Below are positions 1 to 22,131 of a DNA stretch of 38,527 nucleotides, one piece after another. The position numbers and the translations under genes are program-made. The notes under the pieces were generated by a model. That model saw nothing but the letters and a program-made list of their open reading frames with translations, was not told the origin of the DNA and made no database searches. Origin of the DNA: a virus (lineage: Duplodnaviria > Caudoviricetes); IMG/VR virus record IMGVR_UViG_3300044507_000081, positions 1 to 38,527 of that record; one strand, written 5' to 3'. Each line of letters starts with the position of its first letter. Position 1 is the first letter of the stretch.

Positions 1-44
1 GCCCTCTCGTCTTGCGGCGGCGCGACGAGGGGGCCGTCATTTTT
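1..44 (+). terminator. probable intrinsic terminator (11-bp GC hairpin + T run)
   Basis: GCCCTCTCGTC (1-11) pairs with GACGAGGGGGC (24-34), followed by CGTCATTTTT. It would end the lysis operon if the window is circular. Confidence 0.55.
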
Positions 45-343
45 CCGCGAGGTGTCGCCGTGCCCATGCTAGGCTCGGGAGTCCGGGGCCGGTCCTCGCG
101 CCTCTCTCTCCTGGTGGCTTGGCGGCCTCCCAGGCGGCGCGGGAACCGGCCCCTCCTCTTCCCCCTCCAGGCCCCCGAACCGCCGCCCAGGAACTCTCCA
201 CCGACGCCCGTGATTTACCATGCCACCGGATCGTGCCGCCGCGAACCGCCCGCCGTTCAAGGGGTCACGGGGAGGCCCCGAGGAGGGGCCGGAAACGGCA
301 CCGGTGGCATGTACCTTTCCCGGAGGAATCTGACCCTCCCCCC

Positions 344-372
344 TTGCACCCCTCACCTGCGCCCATGATGAT
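344..372 (+). promoter_or_regulatory. possible sigma70-type early promoter
   Basis: TTGCAC (344-349), 17-bp spacer, GATGAT (367-372), about 110 nt upstream of the first ORF. The -10 match is weak. Confidence 0.3.
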
Positions 373-478
373 GCGCCCCTGGAGGCCGCCAATGACCGAG
401 AGAGAGAAGGGGAAGGGAAGGGCAGGGGCGGCCCCCGCCTGCGCCCGCGAAGAGGCGCCCGAGAGAGAGGCCGCCACC

Positions 479-1549
479 ATGACCAAGACCCCGAAGACCG
501 CCACCGCCGCCACCACCGCCGGACCCCGCGAGGCCGCGATCCTAGAAAAGGCCCTCGCCGCCGCCGAGAAGACCGCCGACACCGCATGGCACCGCGCGAG
601 GAAGGCCGAGAACACCGCCCAGGTCTACCGCGAGCGGGCCGCCCTCGCCCAGGTGAGGGCCGAGGACCTCGACCGGAAATCCCACGACCTCGCCCGCCTC
701 GCCGCCTCCTACCGGGCGAAGATCGCCGCCATGACCGGCGCCCCCGCCGCCGAGGCCCTCGCGCCCTTCCTGACCCCCGAGACCGAGGCGAAACTCGCCG
801 CCGCCCTCGCGCCCCTCTCCACCGAGGAGAAGGCGCAGGCCGCGCGGCACCGCGCCCAGGAGGCCGAGATCCTGAACCTGACCGCCGAAGACCTGAGCGC
901 CCACGACGACCCCGGCGGCGAGGCCTGCGGCGACTCCCCGGTCTGCCGGGTCTGCACCTTCCGCGAGGCCGAGGCGAACCGGCCACAATTCGCGGTGGCC
1001 CTGACCACCCGCCCGCGCGCCTGCGAGGCAGGATGCACCGCGCGGGCGACCGAGGCCTGGGCGGACGGCAAGGGCCTGCACGCCCTCTGCACCCCCTGCC
1101 GCGACCGCGCCCTTCGGGCGACCGGCGGCCCGACCCCCGCGCCTGACTTCTCCTGCGCGGAATGCGGCGAGGTCCTCCCCCGCCTGCGCCTGCGGCCCGA
1201 CCCCGACGAACCCGCCTCCCTCTACTGCGGTCCCTGCTTCCGCGACATCTTCGAGGACGAGGCGGCGGCCTGCGACGCCTGCCGCGCCAACGGCCCAGGC
1301 GCGAAGGGTTGCACCTGCAACGAGGAGAAGGCCCCCGAGGGCGCGCAGGCCTGGGCGGAGGACGACGCCGAGGCCGAGGCGGAGGGCCTCCTCTCCGACC
1401 TCCTCTCCCAGGCGCGCGAAGAGGGCGAGGCGCCGATCACCAGGGTCGAGACCTTCGGGGACGCCGGGGTCCTCTCCCGCGACCGGGGCCTGGTCCTCTA
1501 CCTCCTGGGCGGCGGCAGGATCTACCTGACGATCCGGCACTCCCGCTAG
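479..1549 (+). CDS. early hypothetical protein: N-terminal coiled coil, several CxxC zinc-binding motifs, C-terminal 'TFGDAGVL..GLVL' domain
   Basis: In frame with ORF 119-1549. Start chosen at ATG 479 after GAGAGAGAGG-CCGCCACC. Strong GC3 codon bias. Confidence 0.8.
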   Translation: MTKTPKTATAATTAGPREAAILEKALAAAEKTADTAWHRARKAENTAQVYRERAALAQVRAEDLDRKSHDLARLAASYRAKIAAMTGAPAAEALAPFLTPETEAKLAAALAPLSTEEKAQAARHRAQEAEILNLTAEDLSAHDDPGGEACGDSPVCRVCTFREAEANRPQFAVALTTRPRACEAGCTARATEAWADGKGLHALCTPCRDRALRATGGPTPAPDFSCAECGEVLPRLRLRPDPDEPASLYCGPCFRDIFEDEAAACDACRANGPGAKGCTCNEEKAPEGAQAWAEDDAEAEAEGLLSDLLSQAREEGEAPITRVETFGDAGVLSRDRGLVLYLLGGGRIYLTIRHSR

Positions 1550-1600
1550 GCCGAAACCCCCGCAAGGGGGTCGCGGGGTTCCGCCCCGCCTGACGAGGCC
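1549..1600 (+). ncRNA. hammerhead ribozyme HH1, type II (open stem II); cleavage after C1572
   Basis: GGCC-GAAA-CCCCC(GCAA)GGGGG-TC-GCGGGG(TTCCG)CCCCGC-CTGACGA-GGCC. All core residues present (CUGANGA, GAAA, GUC), with three perfect stems. Confidence 0.95.
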
Positions 1601-1643
1601 CGAGAGACCCGCAGAACCGAAGAGAGGAAGAGAGGCCGCCACC

Positions 1644-2363
1644 ATGAAAAAGACCCGCCCCGAACCCCTCCAGACCCCCGAGACGCTCGCCCAGGACGGC
1701 GCCCGCGCGGGGCGCCGCCTCCGCCGCGCCCAGGCCGAGAGGCGCCGCCGCCTGCGCCTGGGCGCCGAGGCCGACGCCGCCTATGACCGCGCCGCCTCCC
1801 TGGACGCCGACGACCGCGCCGCCCTCCGCCGCCTGGAGGAGGCCGAGGCCTTCCGCGCCCGGTTCTCCGCCGAGGCGACCGGCGGCCCGCAGGCCCGCCC
1901 CTCGACCAACCGGGGGATCTCCCTCCAGGGGCTGCTCCTCCTCCTGGGCCTGCGCCACGGCGCGACCCACCTCCTGACCGATTGGGGCGAGGAGACCGCC
2001 TGTTGCGGACTCAAGGCCTGCGACCACTCCTGCGAGGAGGACGACCCCTGCGCCCTCTGCGCGGGTCGGGGCGATTGCGGCGAGGGCCTTTTCCTCTGCG
2101 CCTGCGCGCCCCTCTCGCCCATGCCGCAGACCGCCGCCCTCCTCCACCTGCGGACCTGCCCCTCGGCCCGCCGCGACGGCCTGCGGATCGCGGTCTTCTC
2201 CGACGCCTGTTGGGTCTGCTACCGCCGCGAGGCGACCACCACCGAGCGGCGCGCCCTCTCCGGCCCCGCCTGCTACCGCGCCTGCGACTCCTGCGCCGAC
2301 CAGGTCGAGGCCGACGCGGTGGAGAAGGCCGAGACGGCGGCGGGTTGGGACCCGAACCCATAG
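1644..2363 (+). CDS. early Cys-rich hypothetical protein
   Basis: RBS GAGAGG-CCGCCACC-ATG; many CxxC pairs in the C-terminal half. Confidence 0.75.
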   Translation: MKKTRPEPLQTPETLAQDGARAGRRLRRAQAERRRRLRLGAEADAAYDRAASLDADDRAALRRLEEAEAFRARFSAEATGGPQARPSTNRGISLQGLLLLLGLRHGATHLLTDWGEETACCGLKACDHSCEEDDPCALCAGRGDCGEGLFLCACAPLSPMPQTAALLHLRTCPSARRDGLRIAVFSDACWVCYRREATTTERRALSGPACYRACDSCADQVEADAVEKAETAAGWDPNP

Positions 2364-2422
2364 GCCGAAACCCTGCCCCCTTCGGGGCGGGGTCGAGGGG
2401 TAAGGCCCCTCCTGACGAGGCC
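2363..2422 (+). ncRNA. hammerhead ribozyme HH2, type II; cleavage after C2394
   Basis: GGCC-GAAA-CCCTGCCCC(CTTC)GGGGCGGGG-TC-GAGGGG(TAAGG)CCCCTC-CTGACGA-GGCC. Confidence 0.95.
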
Positions 2423-2466
2423 AATACCGGCACCGCAGAAACGAGAGAGAGAGAGGAGACCCACCA

Positions 2467-3105
2467 ATGACCAACAAGCAGAGGACGCAGACCCTCCGGC
2501 AGGCGGCGGTCGAGGCCCAGGAGAAGATCAAGGCGGCGGCGGCGCTCTGGACACCGAAGACCCCCAACTCCGCCTTCACCTTCCTGGGCGAGGCGGACGC
2601 GATCCTGGTGACCGCCCTGAACCTGACCGGCGCCCTGCGGAAACCGGCCATGACCGAGGAGGAGAAGGCGGCGGCCAAGGCCGCGCGCCGGTTCGAGAAG
2701 GCCCAGGAGCGCATGCTCCGCCAACTCCGCCTGACCGGGATCCGGCAGGGGGCGTTCGGGATCGCCAAGGAAGGCGGCGCGCGGGTGGCCTTCCTGACCG
2801 ACCCGCGCCTGGAGGGGGCGAAGATCCTGGTCCAGGCCCAGGACGCCCAGGGCGCGATCTTCGCGGCGGAGGCCCTCGCCTACCGCCCCGACTACGCCGC
2901 CATGGACATGACCGCCCCGAAGGCGAAGGCGGCCACCCGGAAGACCGAGGCCGAGGGCGGCGCGAAGGGTGGCGCCCAGGCGCGCGCCAAGGGCGCCCAG
3001 GCGAAGGCGAAGGCCGCCCCGAAGGGGAAGGCCCCCGCGAAGGCCAAGGACCCCGTCCAGGCCGCCCAGGCGCCCCAGGGCGACCCCCTGGGTTCGCGGT
3101 TCTAG
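2467..3105 (+). CDS. early hypothetical protein with Lys/Ala-rich C-terminal tail
   Basis: RBS GAGGAG, strong codon bias, basic AKA-rich tail. Confidence 0.8.
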   Translation: MTNKQRTQTLRQAAVEAQEKIKAAAALWTPKTPNSAFTFLGEADAILVTALNLTGALRKPAMTEEEKAAAKAARRFEKAQERMLRQLRLTGIRQGAFGIAKEGGARVAFLTDPRLEGAKILVQAQDAQGAIFAAEALAYRPDYAAMDMTAPKAKAATRKTEAEGGAKGGAQARAKGAQAKAKAAPKGKAPAKAKDPVQAAQAPQGDPLGSRF

Positions 3106-3107
3106 CA

Positions 3108-3171
3108 GGCCGAAACCGGGCGCGCCCAGGCGGGCGCCCGGTCGGGCGGTGCGGCCGCCCCTGACGAGGCC
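3108..3171 (+). ncRNA. hammerhead ribozyme HH3, type II; cleavage after C3143
   Basis: GGCC-GAAA-CCGGGCGC(..)GCGCCCGG-TC-GGGCGG(TGCGG)CCGCCC-CTGACGA-GGCC. Confidence 0.95.
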
Positions 3172-3272
3172 AAGGCGAGAGGAGGGAGGCCCGCCCCAGG
3201 CGAGGAGAGAAGGCGAGAAGGCGAACCGAACCGGGCGGCCCAGGCCGCCCCCAGGAGAGAGGAGAAACCACC

Positions 3273-4436
3273 ATGTCGAACGTCAATCTGATGCAGGCCT
3301 CCCAGGAGTGGGCGGACCGCCCGGCGGACGAGAGGTTCTCGACCCCGGAGGAATTGCTCCAGGCGGTCACCGAGAGGAAGGCGCGCGCCGCGACCGCGAC
3401 CGTGCCCTTCTCCCTCCTCCAGGCCCAGGCCACCGGGGACCGCGGCCTTCTCCTGGTGGGTCCGGCGGGGGTCCCTGCCGCCCTCTCGGACTGGTCCTTC
3501 GGTCAGGTCTGCGGGAGGATCGGCGCGCCGAAATCCTACTTGCAGACCCTTCCCGCACCGAAGGCGGCGGACCTGGTGAACTACGGGATCTCCCAGGGCG
3601 AGGGCGCCGGTAAGATGGCGGCCCTCCTCCTGGACAACCGCGATGGCGCGACCCGGATCCGGTCCTTCAACTCGGAACTCTACGAACGCCTGTGGGACGA
3701 GGCCCTCGCCTCGCGCCTCTGCACCCTCCAGGCGGAAGGGTGGCGGGTTCCTCCCGCGCGGCCCGCATTCCCCAACCAGCCGGGGTCGCGCCCCGCGACC
3801 GAGGCGGACGTCCTGCGGTCTCGAGACGGCGGCGGCGGCCTCTCAATTTCCATCGGGGACATGATCGCCCCTGCGGGCCTCTACGCCGGGGACCGCGACA
3901 TGTTCGCCTTTATGGTGAACGAGGCGGCGCGCATCGAGGACGGAACCGACCAGGGCCTCTCGCGCGGGTTCTTCCTCCAGAACTCCGAGGTCGGCGCCTC
4001 CTCGGTGAAGATCACCGCCTTCCTCTACCGGCATGTCTGCGGGAACCACATCGTATGGGGCGCGGAGGCGGTGCGCCGCCTCGCGATCCGGCACGTCGGG
4101 GACGGGCCTGACCGGTTCTTCCGCGAACTCCGGGTGCGCCTCACCGAGTACACCGCCGAGGGTGCCGCAGAGGACCGCCTCCGGGTGAAAAAGGCCCAGG
4201 CCTTCACCCTCGCCGCGAAAAAGGACGAGGTGATCGACCTCCTGTTCAAGGCGGCGATCCTCTCGCGGCGGAAACTCACGACCGCCTACGACCTCGCGGA
4301 GGCGGAGAACGAGAACCCGACGACCGCCTGGGGGTTCGCCCAGGGCATCACCCGCCTCTCCCAGGCCGCGCCCTTCGCGGGCGAGCGGGCCGACATGGAC
4401 AAGGCGGCAGGGAAGGTCCTAGAGATGGCGTTCTAG
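3273..4436 (+). CDS. DUF932/DUF945-family phage/plasmid protein
   Basis: Motifs 'LYAGDRDMFAF', 'GFFLQNSEVG.SS..ITAFLYRHVCGNHIVWG' and 'TAWGFAQGIT'; RBS GAGGAG. Confidence 0.8.
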   Translation: MSNVNLMQASQEWADRPADERFSTPEELLQAVTERKARAATATVPFSLLQAQATGDRGLLLVGPAGVPAALSDWSFGQVCGRIGAPKSYLQTLPAPKAADLVNYGISQGEGAGKMAALLLDNRDGATRIRSFNSELYERLWDEALASRLCTLQAEGWRVPPARPAFPNQPGSRPATEADVLRSRDGGGGLSISIGDMIAPAGLYAGDRDMFAFMVNEAARIEDGTDQGLSRGFFLQNSEVGASSVKITAFLYRHVCGNHIVWGAEAVRRLAIRHVGDGPDRFFRELRVRLTEYTAEGAAEDRLRVKKAQAFTLAAKKDEVIDLLFKAAILSRRKLTTAYDLAEAENENPTTAWGFAQGITRLSQAAPFAGERADMDKAAGKVLEMAF

Positions 4437-4441
4437 GCCCA

Positions 4442-4515
4442 GGTCGAAACCCTGCGCGCGCGGGCGGCCTCTCTCGCGCGCAGGGTCGGCGGGTGACGCC
4501 CGCCCTGACGAGACC
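4442..4515 (+). ncRNA. hammerhead ribozyme HH4, type II; cleavage after C4487
   Basis: GGTC-GAAA-CCCTGCGCGCG(..)CGCGCGCAGGG-TC-GGCGGG(TGACG)CCCGCC-CTGACGA-GACC. Stem II carries a compensatory change (GGTC/GACC versus GGCC/GGCC). Confidence 0.95.
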
Positions 4516-4558
4516 CGGCGGCATGGGGCCGCCCTGGAACCGAGAGGAGGATCCCACC

Positions 4559-5047
4559 ATGAGCCTGAACCACGGCGCGGTCGAGGCCTTCGACCGCCAT
4601 GTCTGCCGCGCGATATGCGAGGCGCTCCAGAAGGCCGCCGAGGGGGTCGCGGAGACCTACGGGGTTGCGATCCAAATCGGCGGCGGGTCCTTCTCCTCGG
4701 GGGAGTTCAAACCCAAGGTCACGATCAAGACCAAGACCTCCGACCGCGACCTCTTCGCCTCCTACTGCGGCCTCTTCCACCTGCGCCCGGAACACTTCGG
4801 GCGCGAGGTCACGGTCTCGGGCGCCCGCTACCGGATCTCCGGGATCACCCCGAGGGTGGGCCGGTTCCCGATCCTCGGGGTTCGCCTGGACGGGAAGAGG
4901 GCGGACAAGACCTTCCGCCTCCCTGCCCTGCCGGTGCGGTCCTCTCTCGGTATCTGCGAGGCCTGCCACAAGGACGGGGCCTCCTGCGGGTGCCCCTCTG
5001 ACCGGCAGGCGGTCGCCTTCGCCCAGGCCTGGAGGTCACGCCCGTGA
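4559..5047 (+). CDS. early phage hypothetical protein
   Basis: RBS GAGGAGG-ATCCCACC-ATG, in frame with ORF 4493-5047. Confidence 0.8.
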   Translation: MSLNHGAVEAFDRHVCRAICEALQKAAEGVAETYGVAIQIGGGSFSSGEFKPKVTIKTKTSDRDLFASYCGLFHLRPEHFGREVTVSGARYRISGITPRVGRFPILGVRLDGKRADKTFRLPALPVRSSLGICEACHKDGASCGCPSDRQAVAFAQAWRSRP

Positions 5048-5223
5048 CGGCGCCCTCCTGCCCCGCCTGCGGCGGACCCGGCGGCCTCCTCGGGACCCTC
5101 GGGTTCCTGCGGTGGTTCCGGTGCATCGCCTGCGGCATGGAGTTCAACCGCCGCCTGCGCCCGAGGAGGCGCAAGGCCGAGAAGGCGCCCCAGGCGCGAG
5201 GGGAGGCCCTTCACAGACCCTGA
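5044..5223 (+). CDS. 59-aa zinc-ribbon protein (CPAC...CIAC), not in the ORF track
   Basis: GTGA overlap with the previous stop; translates as MTAPSCPACGG...FRCIACGMEFNRRLR. Confidence 0.65.
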   Translation: MTAPSCPACGGPGGLLGTLGFLRWFRCIACGMEFNRRLRPRRRKAEKAPQARGEALHRP

Positions 5224-5347
5224 AACTCCCCCGCCCTGGGGAGAGGAGGCGCACGCCGCCGTGGGTGGCGCCCTCGCGGAGTCCAGGATCGGTTCGCCGC
5301 GAGGGCGCCGATGGTCTCACCGCACCGAGCCGTCCAGGAGGTCAACC

Positions 5348-5593
5348 GTGAAGAACGGCAGGAAGAGGGAAAGGGTGGCCGAGGGGTTCAAGGTATCGGA
5401 AATCGTCCTGGTCAAGGGACGCTCGACCCTCTACCGCTACCAGGTCCCGACCGAGGCCTGCGCGGTCTGTTTCGACTGTGAGGCGTGCCCCGATGGGAAG
5501 GGGGTCGGCCCGGAGATCCTGTTCGCGCCCGAGAGGGCGGAGGCGCACCGCCGCCGAGGCCACGAGGTGGTCCCGGTGGTGCGGCGCGGGTGA
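5348..5593 (+). CDS. small hypothetical protein (CxxC, H motifs)
   Basis: RBS AGGAGG then GTG at 5348. Confidence 0.65.
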   Translation: MKNGRKRERVAEGFKVSEIVLVKGRSTLYRYQVPTEACAVCFDCEACPDGKGVGPEILFAPERAEAHRRRGHEVVPVVRRG

Positions 5594-5790
5594 AGGGGCC
5601 GCGCAGGAAGGTCGAGGGCGGGCGCCTCTTCGTGAAAGACGGCATGGTCTGGAGGGACGCGGGGCCTGCGCCCCCGCGCCGCCGCCTCACCGAGGCGCAG
5701 AGGGAGGCGCGCCACCGCGCGCGCATGGACCGGTGGGCCGCCCGCTACGACCGCCTGGACGGCGCGCCAGAAGGGAGGGAGGATTCATGA
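5590..5790 (+). CDS. small basic hypothetical protein
   Basis: GTGA and ATGA overlaps on both sides. Confidence 0.6.
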   Translation: MKGPRRKVEGGRLFVKDGMVWRDAGPAPPRRRLTEAQREARHRARMDRWAARYDRLDGAPEGREDS

Positions 5791-5981
5791 CCTTGATCCT
5801 CGGCGGGGACCGGCCCGTGCCGCCCGCCAACCGCAAGGTGAAGACGGGGTCGCCCGCCCAGGCGGCGGCCTTCCTCTTCGCCGTTCTCGCCCTCGCCGTC
5901 TGCGGGGGCGAACTCCTCGGGTGGATCCTGGACCGGGTCGCCCTCTTCTCCTGGGCGGCCTCCCAGGGGTGGCGCCCTTGA
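5787..5981 (+). CDS. small membrane protein
   Basis: RBS GGAGG; one hydrophobic helix (AAAFLFAVLALAVCGG). Confidence 0.6.
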   Translation: MTLILGGDRPVPPANRKVKTGSPAQAAAFLFAVLALAVCGGELLGWILDRVALFSWAASQGWRP

Positions 5982-6814
5982 CCACCAGAAGGGTCCACCG
6001 ATCCGTCTCGGGCCTGCGCCTGTTCCAGAAGTGCCCCGCCGCCTGGGAGCAGAAGTACGTCCAGGGCCTTCACATGCCCTCGGGGGTTCATGCGATCCGG
6101 GGGCAGGGGCCGCACGCGGCGGTCGCGCACAACCTCTCGCAGAAGATCACGACGCGGGTGGACCTGCCGCTCGAGGAAGTGCTCGCCGTCGCCGCCGAGA
6201 CGGTCGCCACCGGGTTTCGCGGCGAGGTGCACTTGACCGAGGAGGAGAGGACGATCGGCATCCGAAACCTAGAGGCCAAGGCGAAGGACACCGCGGTCGC
6301 CATGACCCGGTTCCACCACCTGCGGGTCTCGCCCCACATGCGCCCTCTCGCGGTCGAGAGGGAGATCCGGGTCAGGCCCGATCCTCGCCTGGGCCTGCCG
6401 GAGGTGGTCGGTCGACCGGACCTGGTCACCGAGGGAGGAGGCCCAGGCCTGGAGGACCTCCACGATCACAAGACCAAGGAAGCGTCACCCAGGGAGGGAG
6501 AGGAGCACTACGAGCAGGGCCTCACCATGTACGCCCTCCTCTTCCACTCGAAGTACGGCCACCTGCCGCGCACCGTCTCCCTCGACTTCCTGGTGGCGCG
6601 CGGCCACCGGGTGGAGTTCTACCACCGCCCGTCGACCCGGAGCATGGACGACTTGCGGGGTATGGTCACCGCCCTCCAGAAGGCGGAGGCCTCGATTCAG
6701 GCGGGCGCCTTTCCGCCGACCGACCCCTCGAACTGGTGGTGCTCCGAGAAGTGGTGCGGGTTCTGGAACCGCTGCCCCTTCGTCGCGGGGCGCCGCCGAA
6801 GGGAGGGGGCATGA
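5978..6814 (+). CDS. PD-(D/E)XK RecB/Cas4-like exonuclease
   Basis: 'SVSGLRLFQKCP', 'GRPDLV', 'DHKT', 'QGLTMYA' and C-terminal 'WCSEKWCGFWNRCP' (four-Cys Fe-S-type arrangement). Confidence 0.85.
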   Translation: MTTRRVHRSVSGLRLFQKCPAAWEQKYVQGLHMPSGVHAIRGQGPHAAVAHNLSQKITTRVDLPLEEVLAVAAETVATGFRGEVHLTEEERTIGIRNLEAKAKDTAVAMTRFHHLRVSPHMRPLAVEREIRVRPDPRLGLPEVVGRPDLVTEGGGPGLEDLHDHKTKEASPREGEEHYEQGLTMYALLFHSKYGHLPRTVSLDFLVARGHRVEFYHRPSTRSMDDLRGMVTALQKAEASIQAGAFPPTDPSNWWCSEKWCGFWNRCPFVAGRRRREGA

Positions 6815-6984
6815 CCGCGCCCTTCCTCTACCGCCTCCTGCGCGCCCTTCTCTTCCGCCTGGAGTGGGAAGGCCGCAACGGCGACCACTCCCTGGAGGCC
6901 TGCCGCAGGCGGGTGCGGGAGAAGAGGGCGATCCGCCGGATCGCTATCGCGGCCTCCCTGCCGCCCGAGAGGCTGCCCCGATGA
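6811..6984 (+). CDS. small hypothetical protein
   Basis: ATGA overlaps on both sides; RBS GGAGG. Confidence 0.5.
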   Translation: MTAPFLYRLLRALLFRLEWEGRNGDHSLEACRRRVREKRAIRRIAIAASLPPERLPR

Positions 6985-7172
6985 AGAGGCCGCGCCGCAC
7001 GCGCAATACCGCCCAGGAGTCGATCCTCACCGTCGAGGCCTTCTCCCTGGAGAACGAGCAGAACTGGACAACCTTTCACGGCGTCCTGTCACCCGACAGG
7101 GCGCGCGCCCTCCGCGCGGTTCTTCGCCTCGCGCGTGAGGCGGTTCGCAACCGGCGAAGATCGGAGGACTGA
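6981..7172 (+). CDS. small hypothetical protein
   Basis: ATGA overlap upstream, TGATG coupling downstream. Confidence 0.5.
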   Translation: MKRPRRTRNTAQESILTVEAFSLENEQNWTTFHGVLSPDRARALRAVLRLAREAVRNRRRSED

Positions 7173-8056
7173 TGGCACCGAAGAGAAACCCACCCAGGCC
7201 CGACGCGACCATGGAGATCCTGCCCCCGGAGGCCGCCGCCCCGGAGACCATGATCGACGTCCTGCGCGGCGGCGCGGCGATCACCAAGGCGGAGAACGAC
7301 ACGCTCTCCCAGGTGGCGATCACCCGCCCCAGGAACGCGGCGCGGTCGCTGCAGACCGCCCTCGCGGAACTCGAACTCGACCCCGCCTTCGCGGAGAAGC
7401 AGTACTACGTGATCCCCTACAAGAACGCGGACGGCACCACCACCAACATCGAGGGCCTGTCGATCAAGGCGGCCATGGCGCTCGCGCGCACCTGGGGGAA
7501 CTGCACCACCTCCGCCCGCCTCATCGAGGAGACCCCCGACGCCTTCCTGGTCGAGGGGGTCGCTATTGATTTCGAGACGAACTTCCGGGTCTCGAAAATC
7601 GGCTCCGTCTCGAAGTACTACCGGAACCGGAAGACCGGCGCCATGGTGAAGTGGCGCGACGACAAGTACCCCCAACTCCTCGGGGCCGCCGCCTCCAAGC
7701 AGGTCCGCAACGCGATCCTCAACATGATCCCGGAGGCCCTCCAGCGCCGCTACTGGTCGAGGGCAAAAGAGATCGCCGCCGGTGACAAGGCGCCCCTGGA
7801 CGTGAAGGCCGAGGGGAAAAAGATCCTCGCCGCCTTCGCGCCCTTCGGGGTCGAGGCCGAACACCTGGAGGGGAAGATCGGCCACCCGCTCAAGAACCTG
7901 ACCAAGGCCGACGTCGGCCTCCTGCGGGGGATCTACAACGCCCTCGCCCAGGGGCAGACCACCGCCTGGGAGGCCTTCGGAGTCGAGGCCCCGCAGGAAG
8001 GCGAAGAGACCACCGCCGCGCCCCAGGGATCGCCCCTGGGCGGCGAGGCGGACTAG
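7172..8056 (+). CDS. putative ssDNA-annealing/recombination protein
   Basis: 'IEGLSIKAAMALARTWGN' and 'AAASKQVRNAILNMIP' resemble a conserved phage family that sits beside exonucleases. Function is inferred from context. Confidence 0.6.
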   Translation: MAPKRNPPRPDATMEILPPEAAAPETMIDVLRGGAAITKAENDTLSQVAITRPRNAARSLQTALAELELDPAFAEKQYYVIPYKNADGTTTNIEGLSIKAAMALARTWGNCTTSARLIEETPDAFLVEGVAIDFETNFRVSKIGSVSKYYRNRKTGAMVKWRDDKYPQLLGAAASKQVRNAILNMIPEALQRRYWSRAKEIAAGDKAPLDVKAEGKKILAAFAPFGVEAEHLEGKIGHPLKNLTKADVGLLRGIYNALAQGQTTAWEAFGVEAPQEGEETTAAPQGSPLGGEAD

Positions 8057-9661: not shown

Positions 9662-10699
9662 GTGGGGGACAACTTCCGGTGGTGGAAACTGTGGTACTCG
9701 GCCCTATCGGACCCGGCGGTCCTCTCCCTGCCGCCTGCCCTCCGGTGGGCCTGGGCCGCCCTCGGCGCCTTCTGCAAGGTTCACGGCGCCGGGGGCGTCC
9801 TGCACTTCGACGGCAACCTCGACGGCCTCCTCTCCCTCGCCCTCTACATGGGGGTCCGACCCGAGGCGGTGCGCGCGACCTGCGCGCGCCTTCCTGGGGT
9901 GCGGGTGGTGGAGGGGGCCGCGAGGCGCGGACCAGGCGGAAGGCTACTCGACGAAGGGCGCAAATCCTACTCCGAAAACCTATGCACTCGGAAGGCCTCA
10001 CCCTTCTCGGTGGTCTTCTCTAACTGGAGGAAATATCAGGTGGATCGGCGTCGGTCAACCTCCAGGAAATCACGCAAGCAAATCCCCTCTCCTCTCCTCT
10101 CCTCTATCAGTAGCAGTAAAGGGGTAGAGGTCCAGGAGGAGGGGGCCGCCCAGGCGCCCGCATTGTTCCCCGTTGAACAACCGGCGCCGAAGGCCAAGGG
10201 TCCGAAGGCGAAACCCTCCCGCGAGGCCTGCGCCACCTGCGCCGAGGTCCTCGCTGAACTGAACCGACTGACCGCGCGCCCGCGTGGGTTCTCTGCGGTC
10301 GGCCAAGGCGGCGCGTTCCTGCACTCGCGGCACCAGGAGACCTCCCGAGAGGACTGTCTCCGGGTGGTCCGGGTCATGGTCGCGAAGTGGAAGGGCCGCA
10401 CGATCATCGACCGCGACACCGGGGAGACGGTGAGCATGGAGGATTACCTCCGGCCCTCGACCCTCTTCCGGCCCTCACGGTTCGCGGAGTACGTCACCCT
10501 CCCGGAGAGAAGAGAGAGGCCCGCGCCGACCCAGGCGGGGACCCCCCTCGACCCCCAGGAGATCGCGGCGGTCGACGTCGAGGCCGCGCGCGCCAAGACC
10601 AGGAGGGGGGAGTCAATCTCCTCCACCGAGGCGGCGGCCCTCGCCTTCGACCGGGAAAGGGCGGGCGCCGCCGCGCGCGCCCCTGGAGGGAAGTCATGA
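9662..10699 (+). CDS. phage replication initiator (replisome organiser) with conserved phage C-terminal domain
   Basis: N-terminal 'WWKLW'; C-terminal 'VLAELNRLT...KWKG...MEDYLRPSTLFRPSRF.EY' (Phg_2220_C-like). Confidence 0.8.
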   Translation: MGDNFRWWKLWYSALSDPAVLSLPPALRWAWAALGAFCKVHGAGGVLHFDGNLDGLLSLALYMGVRPEAVRATCARLPGVRVVEGAARRGPGGRLLDEGRKSYSENLCTRKASPFSVVFSNWRKYQVDRRRSTSRKSRKQIPSPLLSSISSSKGVEVQEEGAAQAPALFPVEQPAPKAKGPKAKPSREACATCAEVLAELNRLTARPRGFSAVGQGGAFLHSRHQETSREDCLRVVRVMVAKWKGRTIIDRDTGETVSMEDYLRPSTLFRPSRFAEYVTLPERRERPAPTQAGTPLDPQEIAAVDVEAARAKTRRGESISSTEAAALAFDRERAGAAARAPGGKS

Positions 10700-12044: not shown

Positions 12045-12391
12045 TCCTCGCCGCCCTGTTGGCGGCCCTGCTCTCCTGGGCGCCTCCTCTGCTCGATTGC
12101 AGGGGAGGCGCCGAGGCGGGGCCTCTGCACTACACCGTTCGGTGGGCCTTCCGCGAGGTCATCGGAACGACCATGGTGAGCGGTGAACCGATGCCGGTCT
12201 ACTCGCCCTTCTCCTGGTCGGCGCTCGAGACTGTCCCCGCCTCGTACTGCGCCGACCTGCACGACGGGGAGGGCCTTCGGTGCCGGTGGGTCATTCCTCC
12301 GGCGCCTCAACCTGCGGTGGGGGCGTTCCTGGTGACCGAGGTCACCGCCTACGACCCCGCCGACAACCCCGACTGTGGAGGGAAACCCTGA
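12041..12391 (+). CDS. exported protein, possibly FN3-like beta fold
   Basis: Hydrophobic N-terminus (MILAALLAALLSW), 'YTVRW', 'VTAYD..DN'. Confidence 0.55.
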   Translation: MILAALLAALLSWAPPLLDCRGGAEAGPLHYTVRWAFREVIGTTMVSGEPMPVYSPFSWSALETVPASYCADLHDGEGLRCRWVIPPAPQPAVGAFLVTEVTAYDPADNPDCGGKP

Positions 12392-15213: not shown

Positions 15214-16005
15214 GTGGGAAAAAAGGCCGCGCCCGCCCCGCCACCCTCTGCCGCCCGCATCGAATCGGTCCCGCTCGCCTCCCTGCACCACGCGCCCTAC
15301 AACCCCCGCTCCATGCCGACCGCCGAGATGGAATCCCTCGAACGCGCCCTGCGGACGTTCGGGTTCGTGGACCCGGTGATCGCCAACCGGCGCGAGGCGG
15401 CCCAGGGGTGGAAGGCCTCGGACCCCAGGCCCATGATCGTCGGCGGCCACCAGCGGTGCAGGGCGGCGGAGAAGATCGGCCTACGGTCGGTGCCCGTGGT
15501 CTTCGTCTCCCTGGGCGCGGTGGAGGAGAAGGCGCTCAACCTCGCCCTTAACCGGATCGGCGGGGAGTTCGACCCGGAGAAGTTGGCGCTCGTCATCCAG
15601 GAGATACAGGACCAGGCCGACGCCCTCGCGGCGACCGGGTTCTCCGAGGCCGAGATCGCCGCCGCCATCGCCTCCCTCGCAAAGGACGCCGAGGCCCAGG
15701 CCGCCGCGCAGAAGGTCGCCACCCTCGCGGAACGGTTCGGCGTGCCGCCCTTCTCCATCCTCGACGCCCGGCAGGGGTATTGGCGGGCGCGCAAGGAAGC
15801 GTGGCTCTCCCTGGGCATCAAGTCCGAGATCGGACGCGGCGAGAACCTGCTCAAGTTCTCGGAGACCGTCCTCTCGAACGGGAAGAGGCGCCGCCCTGAA
15901 ACGATCGGGCCTCGTGCAGGAACGAAGGGGCCTGATGCAGCAACGACCCCGCCTCGTATAGCAACGCCGAGGCCTCGTGCAGCAACGCGCGGGGGCGCCC
16001 GGTGA
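15214..16005 (+). CDS. ParB/Srx-like domain plus the N-terminal segment of a phage DNA methyltransferase family
   Basis: 'YNPR', 'FGFVDPVI.N', 'IVGGHQR..AA', 'EKALNLALNRIGGEFD', then 'LAERFGVPPFSILDARQGYW..RK..W.SLGIKSE.GR'. Confidence 0.85.
   Translation: MGKKAAPAPPPSAARIESVPLASLHHAPYNPRSMPTAEMESLERALRTFGFVDPVIANRREAAQGWKASDPRPMIVGGHQRCRAAEKIGLRSVPVVFVSLGAVEEKALNLALNRIGGEFDPEKLALVIQEIQDQADALAATGFSEAEIAAAIASLAKDAEAQAAAQKVATLAERFGVPPFSILDARQGYWRARKEAWLSLGIKSEIGRGENLLKFSETVLSNGKRRRPETIGPRAGTKGPDAATTPPRIATPRPRAATRGGAR
15909..15987 (+). repeat. 4 imperfect direct repeats at exact 21-bp period (core GCCTCGTGCAGCAACG)
   Basis: Copies start at 15909, 15930, 15951 and 15972; a degenerate in-register copy starts at 15888. 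Confidence 0.85.
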
Positions 16006-18014
16006 GGACCGGGTTCGTTCACCCCGAGGCCATGGGCGAGGTCGCCCACGCCTACCTCCGCCTGCTCAACTCCCTCTCCGCGAAACCCCTGCCGCGATCT
16101 ATCGCCTCCGCACCCCAGGGGGCAGAGGCGCTCCTCTCCCTGGTCTACCGAGGGGAACCCCCCGAGGTGCACGACTGGATGCCGGTCAGGGGCGGCGGCG
16201 CCAAGGCCGACAAGGCGCGCGCCTGCGTCGTCTTCTCGGGAGGGAAGGACTCCGTCTCGGTCGCCCTGCGCCTGGTCGCCCAGGGGAAGCGCGTGGTCCT
16301 TGTCCATGTCGCAGGCGCCAACCGCTACGCCGCCGCCGAGGAGGAGAAGGCCGCCCGCGCCCTCGCGCCGCTCCTGGGCCTGCCCCTGGAGATCGTCCGC
16401 CTCGACCACGAGGGCAAGGCGGAGTGGGTCGAGAACCCGATCCGCAACAACTTCCTCCTCGCCTGCGCCGCCGACCTCATGGCGCGGCAGGGGGTCCGCC
16501 TCTTCGCCCTCGGCACCATGCGCTCGCACGCCTTCGACGCCGAGGTGGTCGAGACCGGGGTCTCCGATGCCGTCGAGGTCGTCGACGCCACCGCGGTTCA
16601 CCTCGCCCAGGTGTGGAAGGGCCTGCGCGTCGATCACCTCCTCGCCTCGAACTCCGACTCGTTCCGCGAGGTGGCGAAGAGGCCCGACCTCCTGCCGGAG
16701 ATCCGGTCATGTCTCATCGGCGCGCGGTTCCGCGAGGCCCACCGCCGCACGGCGAAGCGCGTGCACGGCGTCGATCTCCTCCCTGGACGGTGCGGCGTCT
16801 GCTCGAAGTGCGCGGGGGAATACCTCCACCTCGCGCCCCTGGGCGCCCTGCCCTGGTCGGCGTCCTTCGCGGCGCGGTGCATGACGACCCTGCGGCGCGC
16901 CTGGGCGAAGCACTACGGGCGGAAGGGGACCGAGGCCGAGGCCCTCGCCTACTTCCTCGACGCCCAGGCCCTCGATGACCTGTCCAAAGTCCTTCCCCTG
17001 CGGGCCTCCAGTCACCCGCCTCCTCCCAAGGCGCACCCGAACCCTGTCCAGACCCTCGCGCAGAGGCGACAGAACCGAGGCCTGTGGAGAGGCGGGGTGC
17101 AGGGGAAGGACCCAACCTTCTACGCGCAGAAGCGCGAGGTCGAGGCGCGCCTCGGTCGCACCCTCTCAACCCCGGACTTCCGCGAGAACCACTGGGTCCC
17201 TTCGGAGTCGTATCGGGGCACGTCGATCTTCGACCCGGTCCTGTGCGAGTTGGCCTACCGGTGGTGGTCGCCGCCCGGTGGCCTGGTCCTCGACCCCTTC
17301 GCGGGCGGGTCCGTGCGGGGGATCGTCGCCGCCCTCCTGGGCCGCCGCTACCTGGGGGTGGAACTCTCCCAGGCGCAGAAGGCCGCCAACGAGGCGCAGA
17401 GGCGCGACGTATTCGCCCTCCTGGGCCGCGTACGCGCCTCGGGGACGGCGTTCCCAGGCCTGGGCGAGGGAGGGCCGCCGATGCCGAGGTGGACCCTCGG
17501 GGACGCGCGCGCCCTCGACAAGGTCTGCAAGGAACCCGTGGACTTCCTCTTCACCTGTCCGCCCTATGGGAGTCTCGAGCGGTACTCCGACGACCCGCGC
17601 GATCTCTCCGCCATGCAGGACGAGGAGTTCGACGCCGCCTACCGGGAGGTGATCGTCAAGGCCTGCCGCCTCCTCCGGCCCGACTCGTTCGCCTGCTACG
17701 TCGTGGGCGACTACCGAGACGCGCGCGGGGTGTATCGCAACCTGGTGGGCCGCACCGTCGCCGCGTTCGAGGAGGGCGGCCTCGCCTTCTACAACGAGGC
17801 GATCCTCATCACCCCTGCCGGGTCTCTGCCGATCCGCGTGGCGCGCATGTTCGAGGGGAGTCGCAAACTCGGCAAGGCCCACCAGAACGTGCTAGTTTTC
17901 GTGAAGGGGGACCCCGAGGCGGCCACGAAGCGCGTTGGGGCCTGCGAGTTCGGAGAGATCGTTCTCGACCAGGAGGCGGACGGTGGCGGCGCACCCCAAG
18001 ACCAAGCAGGGTAA
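16002..18014 (+). CDS. QueC-like PP-loop ATPase fused to an amino (N4-C/N6-A) DNA methyltransferase
   Basis: N-terminal half: 'VVFSGGKDS', 'PIRN', 'RSC...CGVCSKC'. C-terminal half: 'TSIFDPVLCELAYRWW', 'LDPFAGGSVRG', 'FTCPPY', 'HQNVLVFVKG'. Confidence 0.85.
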   Translation: MRTGFVHPEAMGEVAHAYLRLLNSLSAKPLPRSIASAPQGAEALLSLVYRGEPPEVHDWMPVRGGGAKADKARACVVFSGGKDSVSVALRLVAQGKRVVLVHVAGANRYAAAEEEKAARALAPLLGLPLEIVRLDHEGKAEWVENPIRNNFLLACAADLMARQGVRLFALGTMRSHAFDAEVVETGVSDAVEVVDATAVHLAQVWKGLRVDHLLASNSDSFREVAKRPDLLPEIRSCLIGARFREAHRRTAKRVHGVDLLPGRCGVCSKCAGEYLHLAPLGALPWSASFAARCMTTLRRAWAKHYGRKGTEAEALAYFLDAQALDDLSKVLPLRASSHPPPPKAHPNPVQTLAQRRQNRGLWRGGVQGKDPTFYAQKREVEARLGRTLSTPDFRENHWVPSESYRGTSIFDPVLCELAYRWWSPPGGLVLDPFAGGSVRGIVAALLGRRYLGVELSQAQKAANEAQRRDVFALLGRVRASGTAFPGLGEGGPPMPRWTLGDARALDKVCKEPVDFLFTCPPYGSLERYSDDPRDLSAMQDEEFDAAYREVIVKACRLLRPDSFACYVVGDYRDARGVYRNLVGRTVAAFEEGGLAFYNEAILITPAGSLPIRVARMFEGSRKLGKAHQNVLVFVKGDPEAATKRVGACEFGEIVLDQEADGGGAPQDQAG

Positions 18015-18626: not shown

Positions 18627-19945
18627 CCCTCCGCCTTCCTCCCCTGCGCCCCTACCAGGTGCGGTTTATCCTGCACCCCGCGCGGGACCTGGTGGTGGTC
18701 TCCGCCACGCAGATCGGCAAGTCCTTCGCCTGCGCCTGTTGGCTCCTGGGGAAGGCCTGGGAGAAACCCAACTCCCGGAACTGGTGGGCCGCGCCGACCT
18801 ACTACCAGGCCGAGGTTGGCTACCGCCTGGTCCGCGATCTCGCGCGCAGCGCGGGCGTCCTCCACTCCGCCCTCGACGGCAAACTACGCCTCACGCTGAT
18901 CAACGGCGCGGTCATAGAGGCGCGGTCGTGGGAGAGGGACGAGAACCTCCAGGGGCCGACCGTCGACGCGATCGTGGTGGACGAGGCGGGCCTCCTCACC
19001 CAGGCGGCGCGCGCGATCCTCTCGACCAGGCGCAGCGCGACCCTCGGGCCGATGCGGTTCATAGGGAACCCGACCTACTCCATGAGCGAGTTCTGGCGCC
19101 TCGCGCGGCAGGCGCAGACCTCCAAGGACACGGCGGTCCTCGCCTACATGCGGTGGACCTGGGAGGACATGGCCGAGGCCCTCCCCGCCCAGGAGGCCGC
19201 CGACTACCGGGAGTTCATCGCCCAGGAAAAGACCCAACTCCCGACCGACGAGTTCCGCCGCCTCTACGAGGCCGAGTTCCTGGAGATGGGGACCGGGATC
19301 CTCGACCTGCGCCCGGTCTGCACCCTGGGCGGCGACGATCTCCACCCGGTCAAGATGCCCTACCTCGACGCCTGGAACCCCGAGAGGGACGGCCCCTGCG
19401 TCGGCGGCATGGACCTTGGCGAGCACGTCAACCCCTCGGTCCTCACGGTATGGGGCAGGAAGTCGGGCCGCCTCCTGTATCTCATGTCGATGAAGAACCT
19501 CAAGTGGGAGGTGCAGGCGGCGCGCGCGGTCACGGCCTTGCGGTCGTTCTCCGTCCTGAAAGGCGAGAGGGCGCCGGGCGCCGAGAAGGACGCGGAGCGG
19601 CAGCAGAGCGTTCTGGTGTATTTTGACGCGACGGGAGTCGGGAGCGCCGTCGCCCAGGTCCTCTCAAAGGCCTCGGTGAACACCGCGGTGCGGTTCTCGG
19701 GCGTCACCTTCAACACGGAGAACAAAAAAGACATGGTCCAGTCCCTCCAGGTGGCGGTCGAGCAGAGGCGGATCGCTATGCCGTGGATCGCGGAGGCGAT
19801 CTCCGAGGCCGACACCCTGGAGAGAACGCAACTCGCAACGTCCGTTCGCTACAAGGCCGCCGAGGGGTTCTCCGACGACATTGTCTGGAGCATGGGCCTT
19901 GCGATCTTCGGCCTGACCAACCTGATAACGGGGGTGCCCTCATGA
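18581..19945 (+). CDS. terL: terminase large subunit
   Basis: 'LRPYQ', Walker A 'ATQIGKS', 'APTY.QA', Walker B 'IVVDEA', 'GNP', nuclease 'GMDLG', 'DATGVG', 'SDDIVWS'. The start is uncertain. Confidence 0.92.
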   Translation: MARAVAVRPASRARVTLRLPPLRPYQVRFILHPARDLVVVSATQIGKSFACACWLLGKAWEKPNSRNWWAAPTYYQAEVGYRLVRDLARSAGVLHSALDGKLRLTLINGAVIEARSWERDENLQGPTVDAIVVDEAGLLTQAARAILSTRRSATLGPMRFIGNPTYSMSEFWRLARQAQTSKDTAVLAYMRWTWEDMAEALPAQEAADYREFIAQEKTQLPTDEFRRLYEAEFLEMGTGILDLRPVCTLGGDDLHPVKMPYLDAWNPERDGPCVGGMDLGEHVNPSVLTVWGRKSGRLLYLMSMKNLKWEVQAARAVTALRSFSVLKGERAPGAEKDAERQQSVLVYFDATGVGSAVAQVLSKASVNTAVRFSGVTFNTENKKDMVQSLQVAVEQRRIAMPWIAEAISEADTLERTQLATSVRYKAAEGFSDDIVWSMGLAIFGLTNLITGVPS

Positions 19946-22131
19946 GCATTTACCGCGACGTCCGCGACGCCTTCGCGGCCTTGGCCGCCCTCGGACGCAG
20001 GACGCGCGCGCGCGCCGAGGCCTCGCAGACGCGGGAGAAGGGCGCCGATTGGGGGTGGCCGACCATGCGCTCGGTCGTCACCCCGGAAATGTGGCAGACG
20101 GGGTTGGACACCCTCCTGCCCCTGGTGCGGACGAACCTCTCGCGCCCCTATGGTCAGGCGCCCACCGTCTACCGCGCGGTGAAGACGATTGCGACGGCCA
20201 TCGCCCAACTCCAGGGCGAGGTGTGGAAGGCGAACCCGCCTGGGCGCAAGTCCTCCGTCGAGGAAGAGGCGGTCGAGGGGCACTGGCTTCCCTCCCTCCT
20301 CGCGGCGCCCTCGCCCACCATGGTCGGGGACCAACTGATAGAGGCGGTCGTCACCTTCCTGGAGATCCGGGGTGAGGCCTTCCTCCTCCACTCGCAGCGG
20401 GCGCAGGAGAACGCGCGCGCCCCCCTGAAACCGAACGAGATCTGGCTCATTGACCCGGCGCAGATGACCCCGAAGGTGAAGGTGGGGCAGGCGGTGACGG
20501 TTTGGACGTGGAACACCCCCTCGGGGCCGCAGGAGGTCGAGGCCGAGGACCTGACCTTCCTCCGATACAACAACCCCTACGATCCCTGCCGTGGACTCGC
20601 GCCTCTCCAGGCGGCGGAGGTGGAGATCACCGGGGACTGGAGGATGGCGAACTACAACAACGCGTTCTTCGGCAACTTCGCGGTGCCGCCGATCCTCTTC
20701 TACGTCGAGGGAGAGCAGGAGTGGCTCGAAGAGGACCGCGAGCGGTTCCTCGAATTGTGGCAGGCGAAGCAGGCGGGGCAGGGTGCGCACAAGGCGGGCG
20801 CCCTCCCGCGCGGCGTGCGCCCGTTCACCGTGGACCTCTCGCAGAACGACATGCAATTCCTGGAGGGCCGCCGGTTCACCAGGGAACAGATCCTCTCGGT
20901 CTTCGGGGTGCCGCCCGCCATCGCGGGGGTGTTCGAGTACGCCAACTACGCGAACTCCCGAGAGCAACTCAAGTTCTTCTGGCACGTCACCCTCCTCCCG
21001 AAGATCCGGTACATCGAGGCGGCCCTCACGCGCGATCTCCTCCAGCGATACGAGGCGGGGTCGGAGTTCTTTTTCAAGACCGAGCCGGTCCTCGCGGAGA
21101 TCGCCTCCGCCGACTACAAGGAAAAGGTCGGCACCGGCAAGGCCCTGTGGGACATGGGGTGGCCTGCGGCAGACGTGAACGACCGCCTCGACCTCGGCAT
21201 GCCGACCGATGGGCGGCCCTGGCTCGAGGAAGGGTTCCTACCCCTGGGCCTGCAACCGGCGGGCCTCGCCCTCGAACCCGCGCCTCCCGAGGCGGAGATC
21301 CCCGAGGAAATGCCCCAGGGCGGAGGGAAGGCGGCGCGCAAGGCGGCCCAGGTCAAGAGGGCGCGGCACGCCACCTACGAGAACCTCGCGGCGCATTGGA
21401 CGCCTATCGCCCGCTCCTACTCCAGGGCCGTGAAGTCCTGGGTATGGGAACTGCGGGCCGAGGTCCTGCGGCGCCTGGAGAAGAACAGCGAGACCCTCCC
21501 GCGCGCGGTGAAGTCGGAGACGCAAGGCCTCCTGTTCGACGCGGAGGAGGCGCGCGTGAAGTTGGTCAAGATCTCCCGCGCCGCCTGGACGCGCGCGGCG
21601 GAGCAGGGCGCCTCCGCCCTGGGCGAGGAGACGGGCGTCGAGGTTTCGTTCGACCTCCTCGACCCGAAGGCGGTCGCCTTCCTCGCGTCCAAGGAAATGC
21701 GGATCCGCCGGGTCTCCGACACCATCCGGCAGGACGTTCGAGAGGCCCTCTCCGAAGGGATCGCGGAGGGCGAGTCGGTCAAGCAGTTGGCCGAGAGGGT
21801 CCGCGAGGTCTTCGACGTGGCGCGCGGCAGGGCGATGACCATCGCGCGCACCGAGACGGCCCAGGCGTTCAACGGGGGCCGCTACCTCGGGATGAAAGAG
21901 GCGGGGATCGAATACCACCAGTGGCTCACCTCGGCGGACGACCGCGTTCGGGACCTCCATGAGGCCCTGATGGGAGAGGCGGTGCCTGTCGGCGAGGCCT
22001 TCGTGCAGAACCTCAAGTACCCCGGCGACCCGGACGGGGAGGCCGAACAGGTCATCAACTGCCGGTGTGTTACTATCCCAATCAGGGCCGAGGAACTCTC
22101 GCCCGCAGGAGGCGGTGAGGAGGAATCGTGA
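19942..22131 (+). CDS. HK97-type portal fused to a Mu F/SPP1 gp7-like head morphogenesis domain
   Basis: Portal motifs 'RGLAPL', 'DMQFLE.R.FTREQI..VFGVPP', 'NYAN'; MuF motifs 'TIARTE', 'WLTSADDRVR..H', 'YPGDP..INCRC'. Confidence 0.9.
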   Translation: MSIYRDVRDAFAALAALGRRTRARAEASQTREKGADWGWPTMRSVVTPEMWQTGLDTLLPLVRTNLSRPYGQAPTVYRAVKTIATAIAQLQGEVWKANPPGRKSSVEEEAVEGHWLPSLLAAPSPTMVGDQLIEAVVTFLEIRGEAFLLHSQRAQENARAPLKPNEIWLIDPAQMTPKVKVGQAVTVWTWNTPSGPQEVEAEDLTFLRYNNPYDPCRGLAPLQAAEVEITGDWRMANYNNAFFGNFAVPPILFYVEGEQEWLEEDRERFLELWQAKQAGQGAHKAGALPRGVRPFTVDLSQNDMQFLEGRRFTREQILSVFGVPPAIAGVFEYANYANSREQLKFFWHVTLLPKIRYIEAALTRDLLQRYEAGSEFFFKTEPVLAEIASADYKEKVGTGKALWDMGWPAADVNDRLDLGMPTDGRPWLEEGFLPLGLQPAGLALEPAPPEAEIPEEMPQGGGKAARKAAQVKRARHATYENLAAHWTPIARSYSRAVKSWVWELRAEVLRRLEKNSETLPRAVKSETQGLLFDAEEARVKLVKISRAAWTRAAEQGASALGEETGVEVSFDLLDPKAVAFLASKEMRIRRVSDTIRQDVREALSEGIAEGESVKQLAERVREVFDVARGRAMTIARTETAQAFNGGRYLGMKEAGIEYHQWLTSADDRVRDLHEALMGEAVPVGEAFVQNLKYPGDPDGEAEQVINCRCVTIPIRAEELSPAGGGEEES

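Follow-up and report, generated by a model that had tools for sequence, protein, structure and literature searches.

We describe an array of four hammerhead ribozymes of type II in a phage genome (Duplodnaviria; Caudoviricetes) that is available as IMG/VR record IMGVR_UViG_3300044507_000081. The DNA analyzed, hereafter called the window, covers positions 1 to 38,527 of that record, and the ribozymes (HH1 to HH4) occupy the gaps between its first five genes. The array is real, well formed and almost certainly under selection. We think that the four units probably cut an early transcript into single-gene mRNAs, with a hairpin at both new ends of each cut. The array is a clean further example of a layout known since 2011 and not a new system. 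Our additions to what is known are modest and consist of a pseudoknot-free geometry with a predicted A-U contact, a rule relating the units to stop codons, and a DUF932-like gene that is bracketed by hammerheads in a related phage.

All four units lie on the + strand (HH1 at 1549-1600, HH2 at 2363-2422, HH3 at 3108-3171 and HH4 at 4442-4515) and have the same order of parts, namely a 4-nt strand of stem II, GAAA, the stem III hairpin, GUC, stem I, CUGACGA and the partner strand of stem II. The core that defines the hammerhead class (CUGANGA, GAAA and an NUH triplet) is present in each of them as CUGACGA, GAAA and GUC, along with the three stems and the A15.1-U16.1 and C11.1-G10.1 pairs. Loops close stems I and III and stem II opens to the flanks, as in the type II permutation. 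Stem I invariably has 6 bp and a 5-nt loop whose first base is U and whose last is G. When the units were folded in isolation, the stem probabilities were 0.90-1.00. The initial annotation of this DNA had identified the units as type II hammerheads, and its coordinates, core and cut sites (Table 1) proved exact throughout. It had also stated that stems I and III vary yet stay paired and that stem II of HH4 has co-varied to GGTC/GACC, which we confirmed.

A strict descriptor for all three permutations found 4 units in the 38.5-kb window but not a single one in any of 200 dinucleotide shuffles, and even at a loose setting the 200 shuffles contained a mean of 0.045 units and a maximum of 1. With one core mismatch permitted, there were no further units on either strand of the window. 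A covariance model (R1), built from 34 equal-length units with HH1 in the training set, gave the four units 40 to 68 bits, compared to 12 bits for the next place in the window. Neither the one-mismatch scan nor the covariance model with its filters off revealed extra or decayed copies. In the alignment of the 34 units, 99.3% of the 544 cells were paired and 13 of the 16 pairs changed on both sides; the set was chosen by a descriptor that demands pairing, so this statistic is partly built in. The contigs of one metagenome run (X1, possibly the source sample) span positions 300-6000 with 0 differences in two long pieces, which speaks against a copying error, though it is not independent evidence.

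A check with the Rfam hammerhead models, as proposed in the initial annotation, succeeded only in part. The Hammerhead_II model (RF02276) matched HH1 alone, at 27.1 bits under its gathering cut-off of 37, and HH2-HH4 were unlisted at E-values up to 1. Hammerhead_3 gave 0 matches on the record itself, but control genomes gave none either, so this null result carries no information. The window units share with RF02276 the core and the order of the core blocks; unlike it, they have a 4-bp stem II with a preceding A and are without a pseudoknot. No pseudoknot of at least 4 pairs between loop I and the tail was found in the four units, in which the best runs were 3, 2, 3 and 2 pairs, and this absence is likely the reason for the low score. 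Perreault et al. (PMC3088659) reported the pseudoknot for most type II units. For comparison we collected 121 distinct type II units from 61 of 80 flanked viral loci, a set that is biased to the present geometry by the search pattern and describes a subfamily rather than all type II units. Pseudoknots of at least 4 bp occurred in 17 of 111 of these relatives versus 19.8 when tails were swapped, which is the level of chance.

The relatives also revealed a conserved base outside the core. Stem II has 4 bp in 111 of the 121, and the base directly before it is A in 119, an A that was absent from the viral search pattern. In the window, each of the four units has it (1548, 2362, 3107, 4441) together with the U at the start of loop I; the latter was part of the search pattern and was not counted independently in the relatives. 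An unpaired U after a 6-bp stem I and an A 5' of a 4-bp stem II provide the geometry of a U1.7-A contact in each unit. In other hammerheads, a Hoogsteen contact joins the unpaired U1.7 to the final A of loop II, the base that directly precedes the 3' strand of stem II (PMC11875169). The sTRSV, Schistosoma and minimal hammerheads (O'Rourke et al., as cited in PMC11875169) show the same 6-bp stem I with an unpaired U, and the A before a 4-bp stem II. In contrast to the contact in these hammerheads, the A of the window units lies in the open upstream strand, often as the A of a stop codon, and not in a closed tetraloop, and the contact is a predicted one. By this analogy, it is likely that the A before stem II pairs with U1.7 in the window units. 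The contact may already be recorded in Figure S5 of Perreault et al. (PMC3088659), which, according to its legend, tallies loop-type contacts by hammerhead type.

The stop codons involved follow a rule. The TAG of genes 1 and 2 (1547-1549 and 2361-2363) overlaps stem II of HH1 and HH2, and HH3 and HH4 start 2 and 5 nt after the upstream stops, in agreement with the initial annotation. Among the 121 viral units, an open reading frame (ORF) of at least 40 amino acids (aa) ends at most 25 nt upstream of the core GAAA in 100 cases, mostly within 3 to 8 nt, compared with a mean of 12.9 and a maximum of 22 at random places and with 21 of 121 on the opposite strand; the ORFs in this test were called mechanically and not by a gene finder. 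In the metagenome set, from which units with less than 200 nt of upstream DNA were dropped, an ORF of the same minimum length ends within the same distance upstream of 75 of 81 units, against 10.3 in the control. The contact A falls inside a stop codon in 39 of the 121 relatives, as it does in HH1 and HH2. Since 26 of the 35 units with a stop triplet at their start end an ORF of at least 40 aa versus 4.4 expected, and 61 of the remaining 82 have an ORF end 5-25 nt upstream, the AG with which a unit starts does not account for the overlap. On the other side, a motif resembling a ribosome-binding site and a start codon follow within 200 nt in 108 of the 121 units (median 29 nt). Our literature search, which left subscription papers, supplements and the original twister, pistol and minimal-hammerhead papers largely outside, found no description of an overlap between hammerhead and stop codon, and 'stop codon' has 0 occurrences in the main text of Perreault et al. 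(PMC3088659).

Units of this kind are found well beyond the window. With the unit pattern, 5 of the 64 parts of the viral collection yielded 131 loci, which corresponds to an estimated 1700 or so stored stretches, and 16 of the 64 parts of the prokaryote genomes yielded 123, spread over many phyla; with a stricter pattern, 41 of the 64 metagenome parts yielded 123. Flanking DNA was available for 80 viral loci, which represent 70 contigs, and in 22 of these contigs the fetched DNA contained at least two type II units. The longest viral arrays have up to 8 or 9 units in a row, and four in a row are thus unremarkable; in one locus (L008), one of three listed units looks spurious. Arrays of 7 to 9 type II units stand between small genes in L043 (2738-5660), L024, L056 and L067. 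Three units about 1 kb apart were also seen in the cultured actinobacterium Phycicoccus jejuensis (L352-L354, NZ_JOEE01000015.1).

The best relatives of the window's terminase are in loci L146 (52%) and L147 (55%). The 38.9-kb record of L147, here called G001, has two type II units, one on each side of a 357-aa gene, and so brackets a DUF932-like gene in the manner of HH3 and HH4 around gene 4. The similarity of its product to gene 4 is weak (26% over 175 aa, E 1e-05), and it has no Pfam match. The second G001 unit begins at the TGA of the 357-aa gene and has a 10-of-12 sigma-70-like promoter directly behind it. The type II unit at 400-494 of L147 (G001 10545-10609, - strand) has an extra base between CUGAUGA and stem II, and a strong sigma-70-like promoter and an HTH_17 gene come directly after it. 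The record of L146, an 11% fragment, contains no type II unit. In each of L011, L037, L109 and L231, a relative of gene 4 comes directly after a unit, as does a different DUF932 gene in L007. When loci were fetched by the gene 4 protein, 0 of 14 carried a type II unit; gene 4 therefore does not need a hammerhead, and an obligate link between hammerheads and DUF932 was rejected. Rfam models run on 11 of these 14 loci returned one twister (L140) and one tRNA. The twister, of type P5 (L140 4796-4854), lies about 1.1 kb upstream of the gene 4 relative, with a possible type I hammerhead near 3184, and adds a further class of ribozyme to regions of this kind. Among the proteins that flank units, 23 of the 150 scanned (164 extracted) matched Pfam, in many families that include ArdA twice, ArdC, RadC, DUF932 and, under the cut-off, SAM lyase.

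Clustered hammerheads that flank single prophage genes were described by Perreault et al. in 2011 (PMC3088659), who proposed that they process transcripts into single-gene mRNAs. Their precedents are the ardA triple of A. tumefaciens and the clusters of C. scindens and A. caulinodans, and they observed cleavage of three tandem arrangements in vitro and of one in E. coli (PMC3088659). The window array agrees with these clusters in that several units of the same orientation lie in the gaps between consecutive phage genes and flank single genes or short blocks of changing cargo, on a record with hallmark phage genes, and the same processing can be proposed for it. Unlike them, it has four units of one type in a row and no loop I pseudoknot. 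ArdA recurs beside relatives of the window units (2 of 150), which, as a bare count, echoes the ardA link of Perreault et al. A link between ribozymes and phage genes has been confirmed in PMC10085705 and PMC7761336. The conversion of a polycistron into single-gene mRNAs, as put forward in the initial annotation, is still the best reading of the array, but it had been the hypothesis of Perreault et al. and, in a 2019 review (PMC6765202), is repeated and called unproven. In a halovirus, a transcript 5' end lies within 3 nt of a hammerhead cut site.

In phage T7, RNase III cuts the early transcript between consecutive genes, which yields single-gene mRNAs with 5'-phosphate and 3'-OH ends. The window array would work alike, with one cut between consecutive early genes. 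The comparison with T7 made in the initial annotation is acceptable as a functional likeness; however, hammerheads act without a protein enzyme and leave 5'-OH and cyclic-phosphate ends, and the array does not belong to the T7 system. We propose that a single transcript would span genes 1-5 and beyond. Each unit would fold during transcription, with help from the single U1.7-A contact that links loop I to the A before stem II, and would cut after GUC. Because the products of a type II unit are joined by only 4 bp, they would part at once and make the cut effectively one-way. The upstream piece would then carry a 3' stem III hairpin and a 2',3'-cyclic phosphate a few bases past its stop codon; at the start of the downstream piece there would be a 5'-OH and the stem I hairpin. 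Genes 2, 3 and 4 would each end up on an RNA of their own (822, 749 and 1344 nt), uncoupled from their neighbours in stability and translation. The ribozyme may in this way serve as a portable, protein-free gene insulator for a fast-changing early region.

Several observations are consistent with this proposal. The predicted folds after the cut have strong hairpins at both new ends in all four units, which in the downstream pieces of HH1 and HH3 arise, by the same prediction, through refolding into other hairpins. A purine-rich leader that ends in CCACCATG or CCAATG precedes each of genes 1-5, and with a ribosome-binding leader of its own each gene should be able to start translation alone. 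The promoter directly behind the second unit of G001 would fit a unit that gives the upstream mRNA its 3' end. Work in E. coli indicates that 5'-OH ends and hairpins slow mRNA decay. The initial annotation had suggested hairpin protection and independence of the host; the hairpins are indeed predicted at both ends, but protection is only surmised from them and the fate of the ends would depend on host nucleases. It had also called the genes the earliest of the phage. This fits the gene order, in which genes 1-5 lie ahead of the recombination and replication genes, and we infer their early status from that position alone.

Other results weigh against the proposal. A scan of positions 1-7200 found no consensus promoter, and a weak -35/-10-like stretch that was noticed by eye at 344-372 was under the scan threshold. 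With 100 nt of upstream sequence included, the thermodynamic model gave stem II probabilities of 0.00-0.04 in HH1, HH2 and HH4, and with stem II outcompeted in this context cutting may be slow or partial; tertiary energy is left out of the model, and its median for 120 relatives is likewise 0.02, so that it says little. After the cut, the modelled access to the ribosome-binding site rose from 0.38 to 0.64 for gene 2 and hardly altered for genes 3-5. The idea that cleavage serves to free ribosome-binding sites, which gene 2 alone supports, was rejected. The absence of type II units from the 14 loci fetched by gene 4 points in the same adverse direction. For the end-protection step, a literature search on 5'-OH ends and RNase E turned up no source that could be used. 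Among consensus hammerheads, 4 of 18 were inactive in Perreault et al. (PMC3088659), and cleavage by glmS, as PMC6765202 describes it, has the opposite effect and leads to degradation of the mRNA.

The glmS case suggests that the cuts might expose the early transcript to host nucleases and keep early-gene expression brief. Once glmS has cleaved itself, cellular RNases degrade the mRNA (PMC6765202). Early genes are plausibly meant to be transient. The strong hairpins predicted at both new ends of all four units argue in the other direction, and one cut per gene, placed so that neither the coding sequence upstream nor the leader downstream is broken, is more than decay alone needs. We regard a decay timer as unlikely.

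The stop-codon rule raises another alternative, in which the ribosome on the upstream gene decides the folding of the unit, either by covering stem II as it terminates or by stripping a competing upstream pairing, and the cut would report on translation. The position of the contact A within stop codons and the excess of ORF ends at stop triplets, both counted above, are in line with it. In the folding model, holding the upstream 93 nt unpaired raised the median stem II probability from 0.02 to 0.62 in 120 units, and from 0.00 to 0.71 in HH1. However, masking any flank favours a local helix, and such an outcome is expected of the model; HH2 and HH4 remained low even when masked (0.17 and 0.04). 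Tight gene packing, together with the sharing of AG or AA between TAG or TAA and the start of a unit, would explain the overlap without regulation, and the distance between stop and unit ranges from overlap to several bases. A broad version would have a pseudoknot-free type II subfamily, in hundreds of phages and often beside anti-restriction genes, in which the stop-codon A sets the rate through U1.7 and the terminating ribosome gates the cut; we consider this quite unlikely, and gating of the window units by translation is, in our judgment, highly doubtful. If gating were true, each early mRNA would be released only in step with translation of the preceding gene, by a protein-free switch.

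The units might also have spread with gene cassettes by duplication, have little effect on expression and be tolerated since their cuts fall only in gaps. Within an array, neighbours are more alike than units of other arrays, the flanking genes are diverse, as their scattered Pfam matches indicate, and the gene 4 relatives fetched by protein occur without units. Yet stems I and III differ while all pairs and a perfect core are kept, which needs continuing selection, and the window lacks decayed copies. Such passive punctuation is very improbable.

Finally, the pieces might be closed into circles or re-joined, by a hybrid ribozyme or by a host ligase of the RtcB type, which joins 5'-OH and cyclic-phosphate ends. 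The three excised window pieces can re-form stem II between their own ends (GGCC/GGCC twice and GGTC/GGCC with one G-U pair), and across arrays 49 of 63 neighbour pairs are compatible versus 18.8 for random partners. The opposite pairing, which would skip a gene, is just as common (45 of 63; strict pairs 41 and 41). Close to the core, stems I and III of neighbours also match each other about as well as stem II does, so that the compatibility is explained by shared descent. The pieces of 822, 749 and 1344 nt are not all multiples of three, and each has a stop codon. With the ends held by only 4 bp, and with spliced and circular products sought but not detected by Perreault et al. (PMC3088659), we give this possibility hardly any weight, and processing into linear single-gene mRNAs remains the reading that we prefer.

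Table 1. Hammerhead units (with the A that precedes stem II; scores from the covariance model) and genes 1 to 5 of the window.
Feature	Position	Strand	Remarks
Gene 1, 356 aa, Cys-rich, no family	479..1549	+	TAG 1547-1549 gives the A before stem II and the first stem II G of HH1
HH1, type II hammerhead and preceding A	1548..1600	+	Predicted cut after C1572; predicted contact A1548-U1579; 68 bits
Gene 2, 239 aa, Cys-rich, no family	1644..2363	+	TAG 2361-2363 overlaps HH2
HH2, type II hammerhead and preceding A	2362..2422	+	Predicted cut after C2394; predicted contact A2362-U2401; 60 bits
Gene 3, 212 aa, Ala/Lys-rich tail, no family	2467..3105	+	HH3 begins 2 nt after the stop
HH3, type II hammerhead and preceding A	3107..3171	+	Predicted cut after C3143; predicted contact A3107-U3150; 51 bits
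Gene 4, 387 aa, DUF932 (phrog_1362), HH3 and HH4 on either side	3273..4436	+	Pfam E 5.7e-08, PHROG E 5.4e-21
HH4, type II hammerhead and preceding A, stem II GGTC/GACC	4441..4515	+	Predicted cut after C4487; predicted contact A4441-U4494; 40 bits
Gene 5, 162 aa, first gene of the downstream block without hammerheads	4559..5047	+	No Pfam or PHROG match

The record represents a whole virus, with an estimated completeness of 98% and about 70% G+C. A run search for the window DNA listed one sediment metagenome DNA run and no RNA run. Among the 42 ORFs scanned, those that could be named lie on the + strand in the usual phage order: DUF932 (gene 4), a PD-(D/E)XK nuclease, the C-terminus of a replication protein and ParB-N, then a DNA methylase, the terminase, a portal with Mu F, an HK97-type capsid, the tail tube and the tape measure. 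The four gaps among genes 1-5 contain no terminator that the scan of 1-7200 could find. The closest capsid relatives have at most 53% identity. Genes 1, 2, 3 and 5 have no Pfam or PHROG family and no match in the 269 loci compared; no relatives of gene 1 or gene 5 were found, and gene 1 matched only itself among proteins of similar length. Compared with the Atlas, gene 5 is like a Y4mA C-terminal part (feature score 0.86, TM 0.58), which is a lead only. Isolated phages with relatives of gene 4 (28-37% identity) have varied hosts, and the literature found, including 10.1101/2025.06.20.660599, gives no function for DUF932.

The start contexts of genes 1-5 (CCACCATG or CCAATG, after long GA-rich leaders) are at 474-481, 1639-1646, 2464-2469, 3268-3275 and 4554-4561. 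The starts of genes 1 and 2 have GAGAGGCCGCCACCATG in common, which we take to match the eukaryotic Kozak consensus, although the record is a phage. Further downstream, a 670-aa ORF (16002-18014) with a QueC-like N-terminal part and a DNA methylase part directly follows the ParB-N gene (15214-16005), and the two are possibly a DNA-modification module. The portal and a Mu F-like head morphogenesis domain are fused in one ORF (19783-22131) and are separate matches in L146. A long near-perfect hairpin (12061-12126) lies downstream of an ORF that ends at 12044, and its match to an Rfam microRNA model (27 bits, cut-off 100) is due to chance.

The purpose of bacterial and phage hammerheads has been a question since 2011, and their roles are largely elusive according to the 2019 review (PMC6765202). 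A four-unit array does not answer the question. The array is nevertheless a tidy test object, with four perfect units packed into 3 kb and a separate gene and leader for every one of them. The stop-codon rule and the predicted A-U contact offer two concrete mutations that can be tested, and with them a reason why most of these units escape the Rfam type II model. If the insulating role is true, these units would be natural, compact analogues of the ribozyme insulators that have been engineered.

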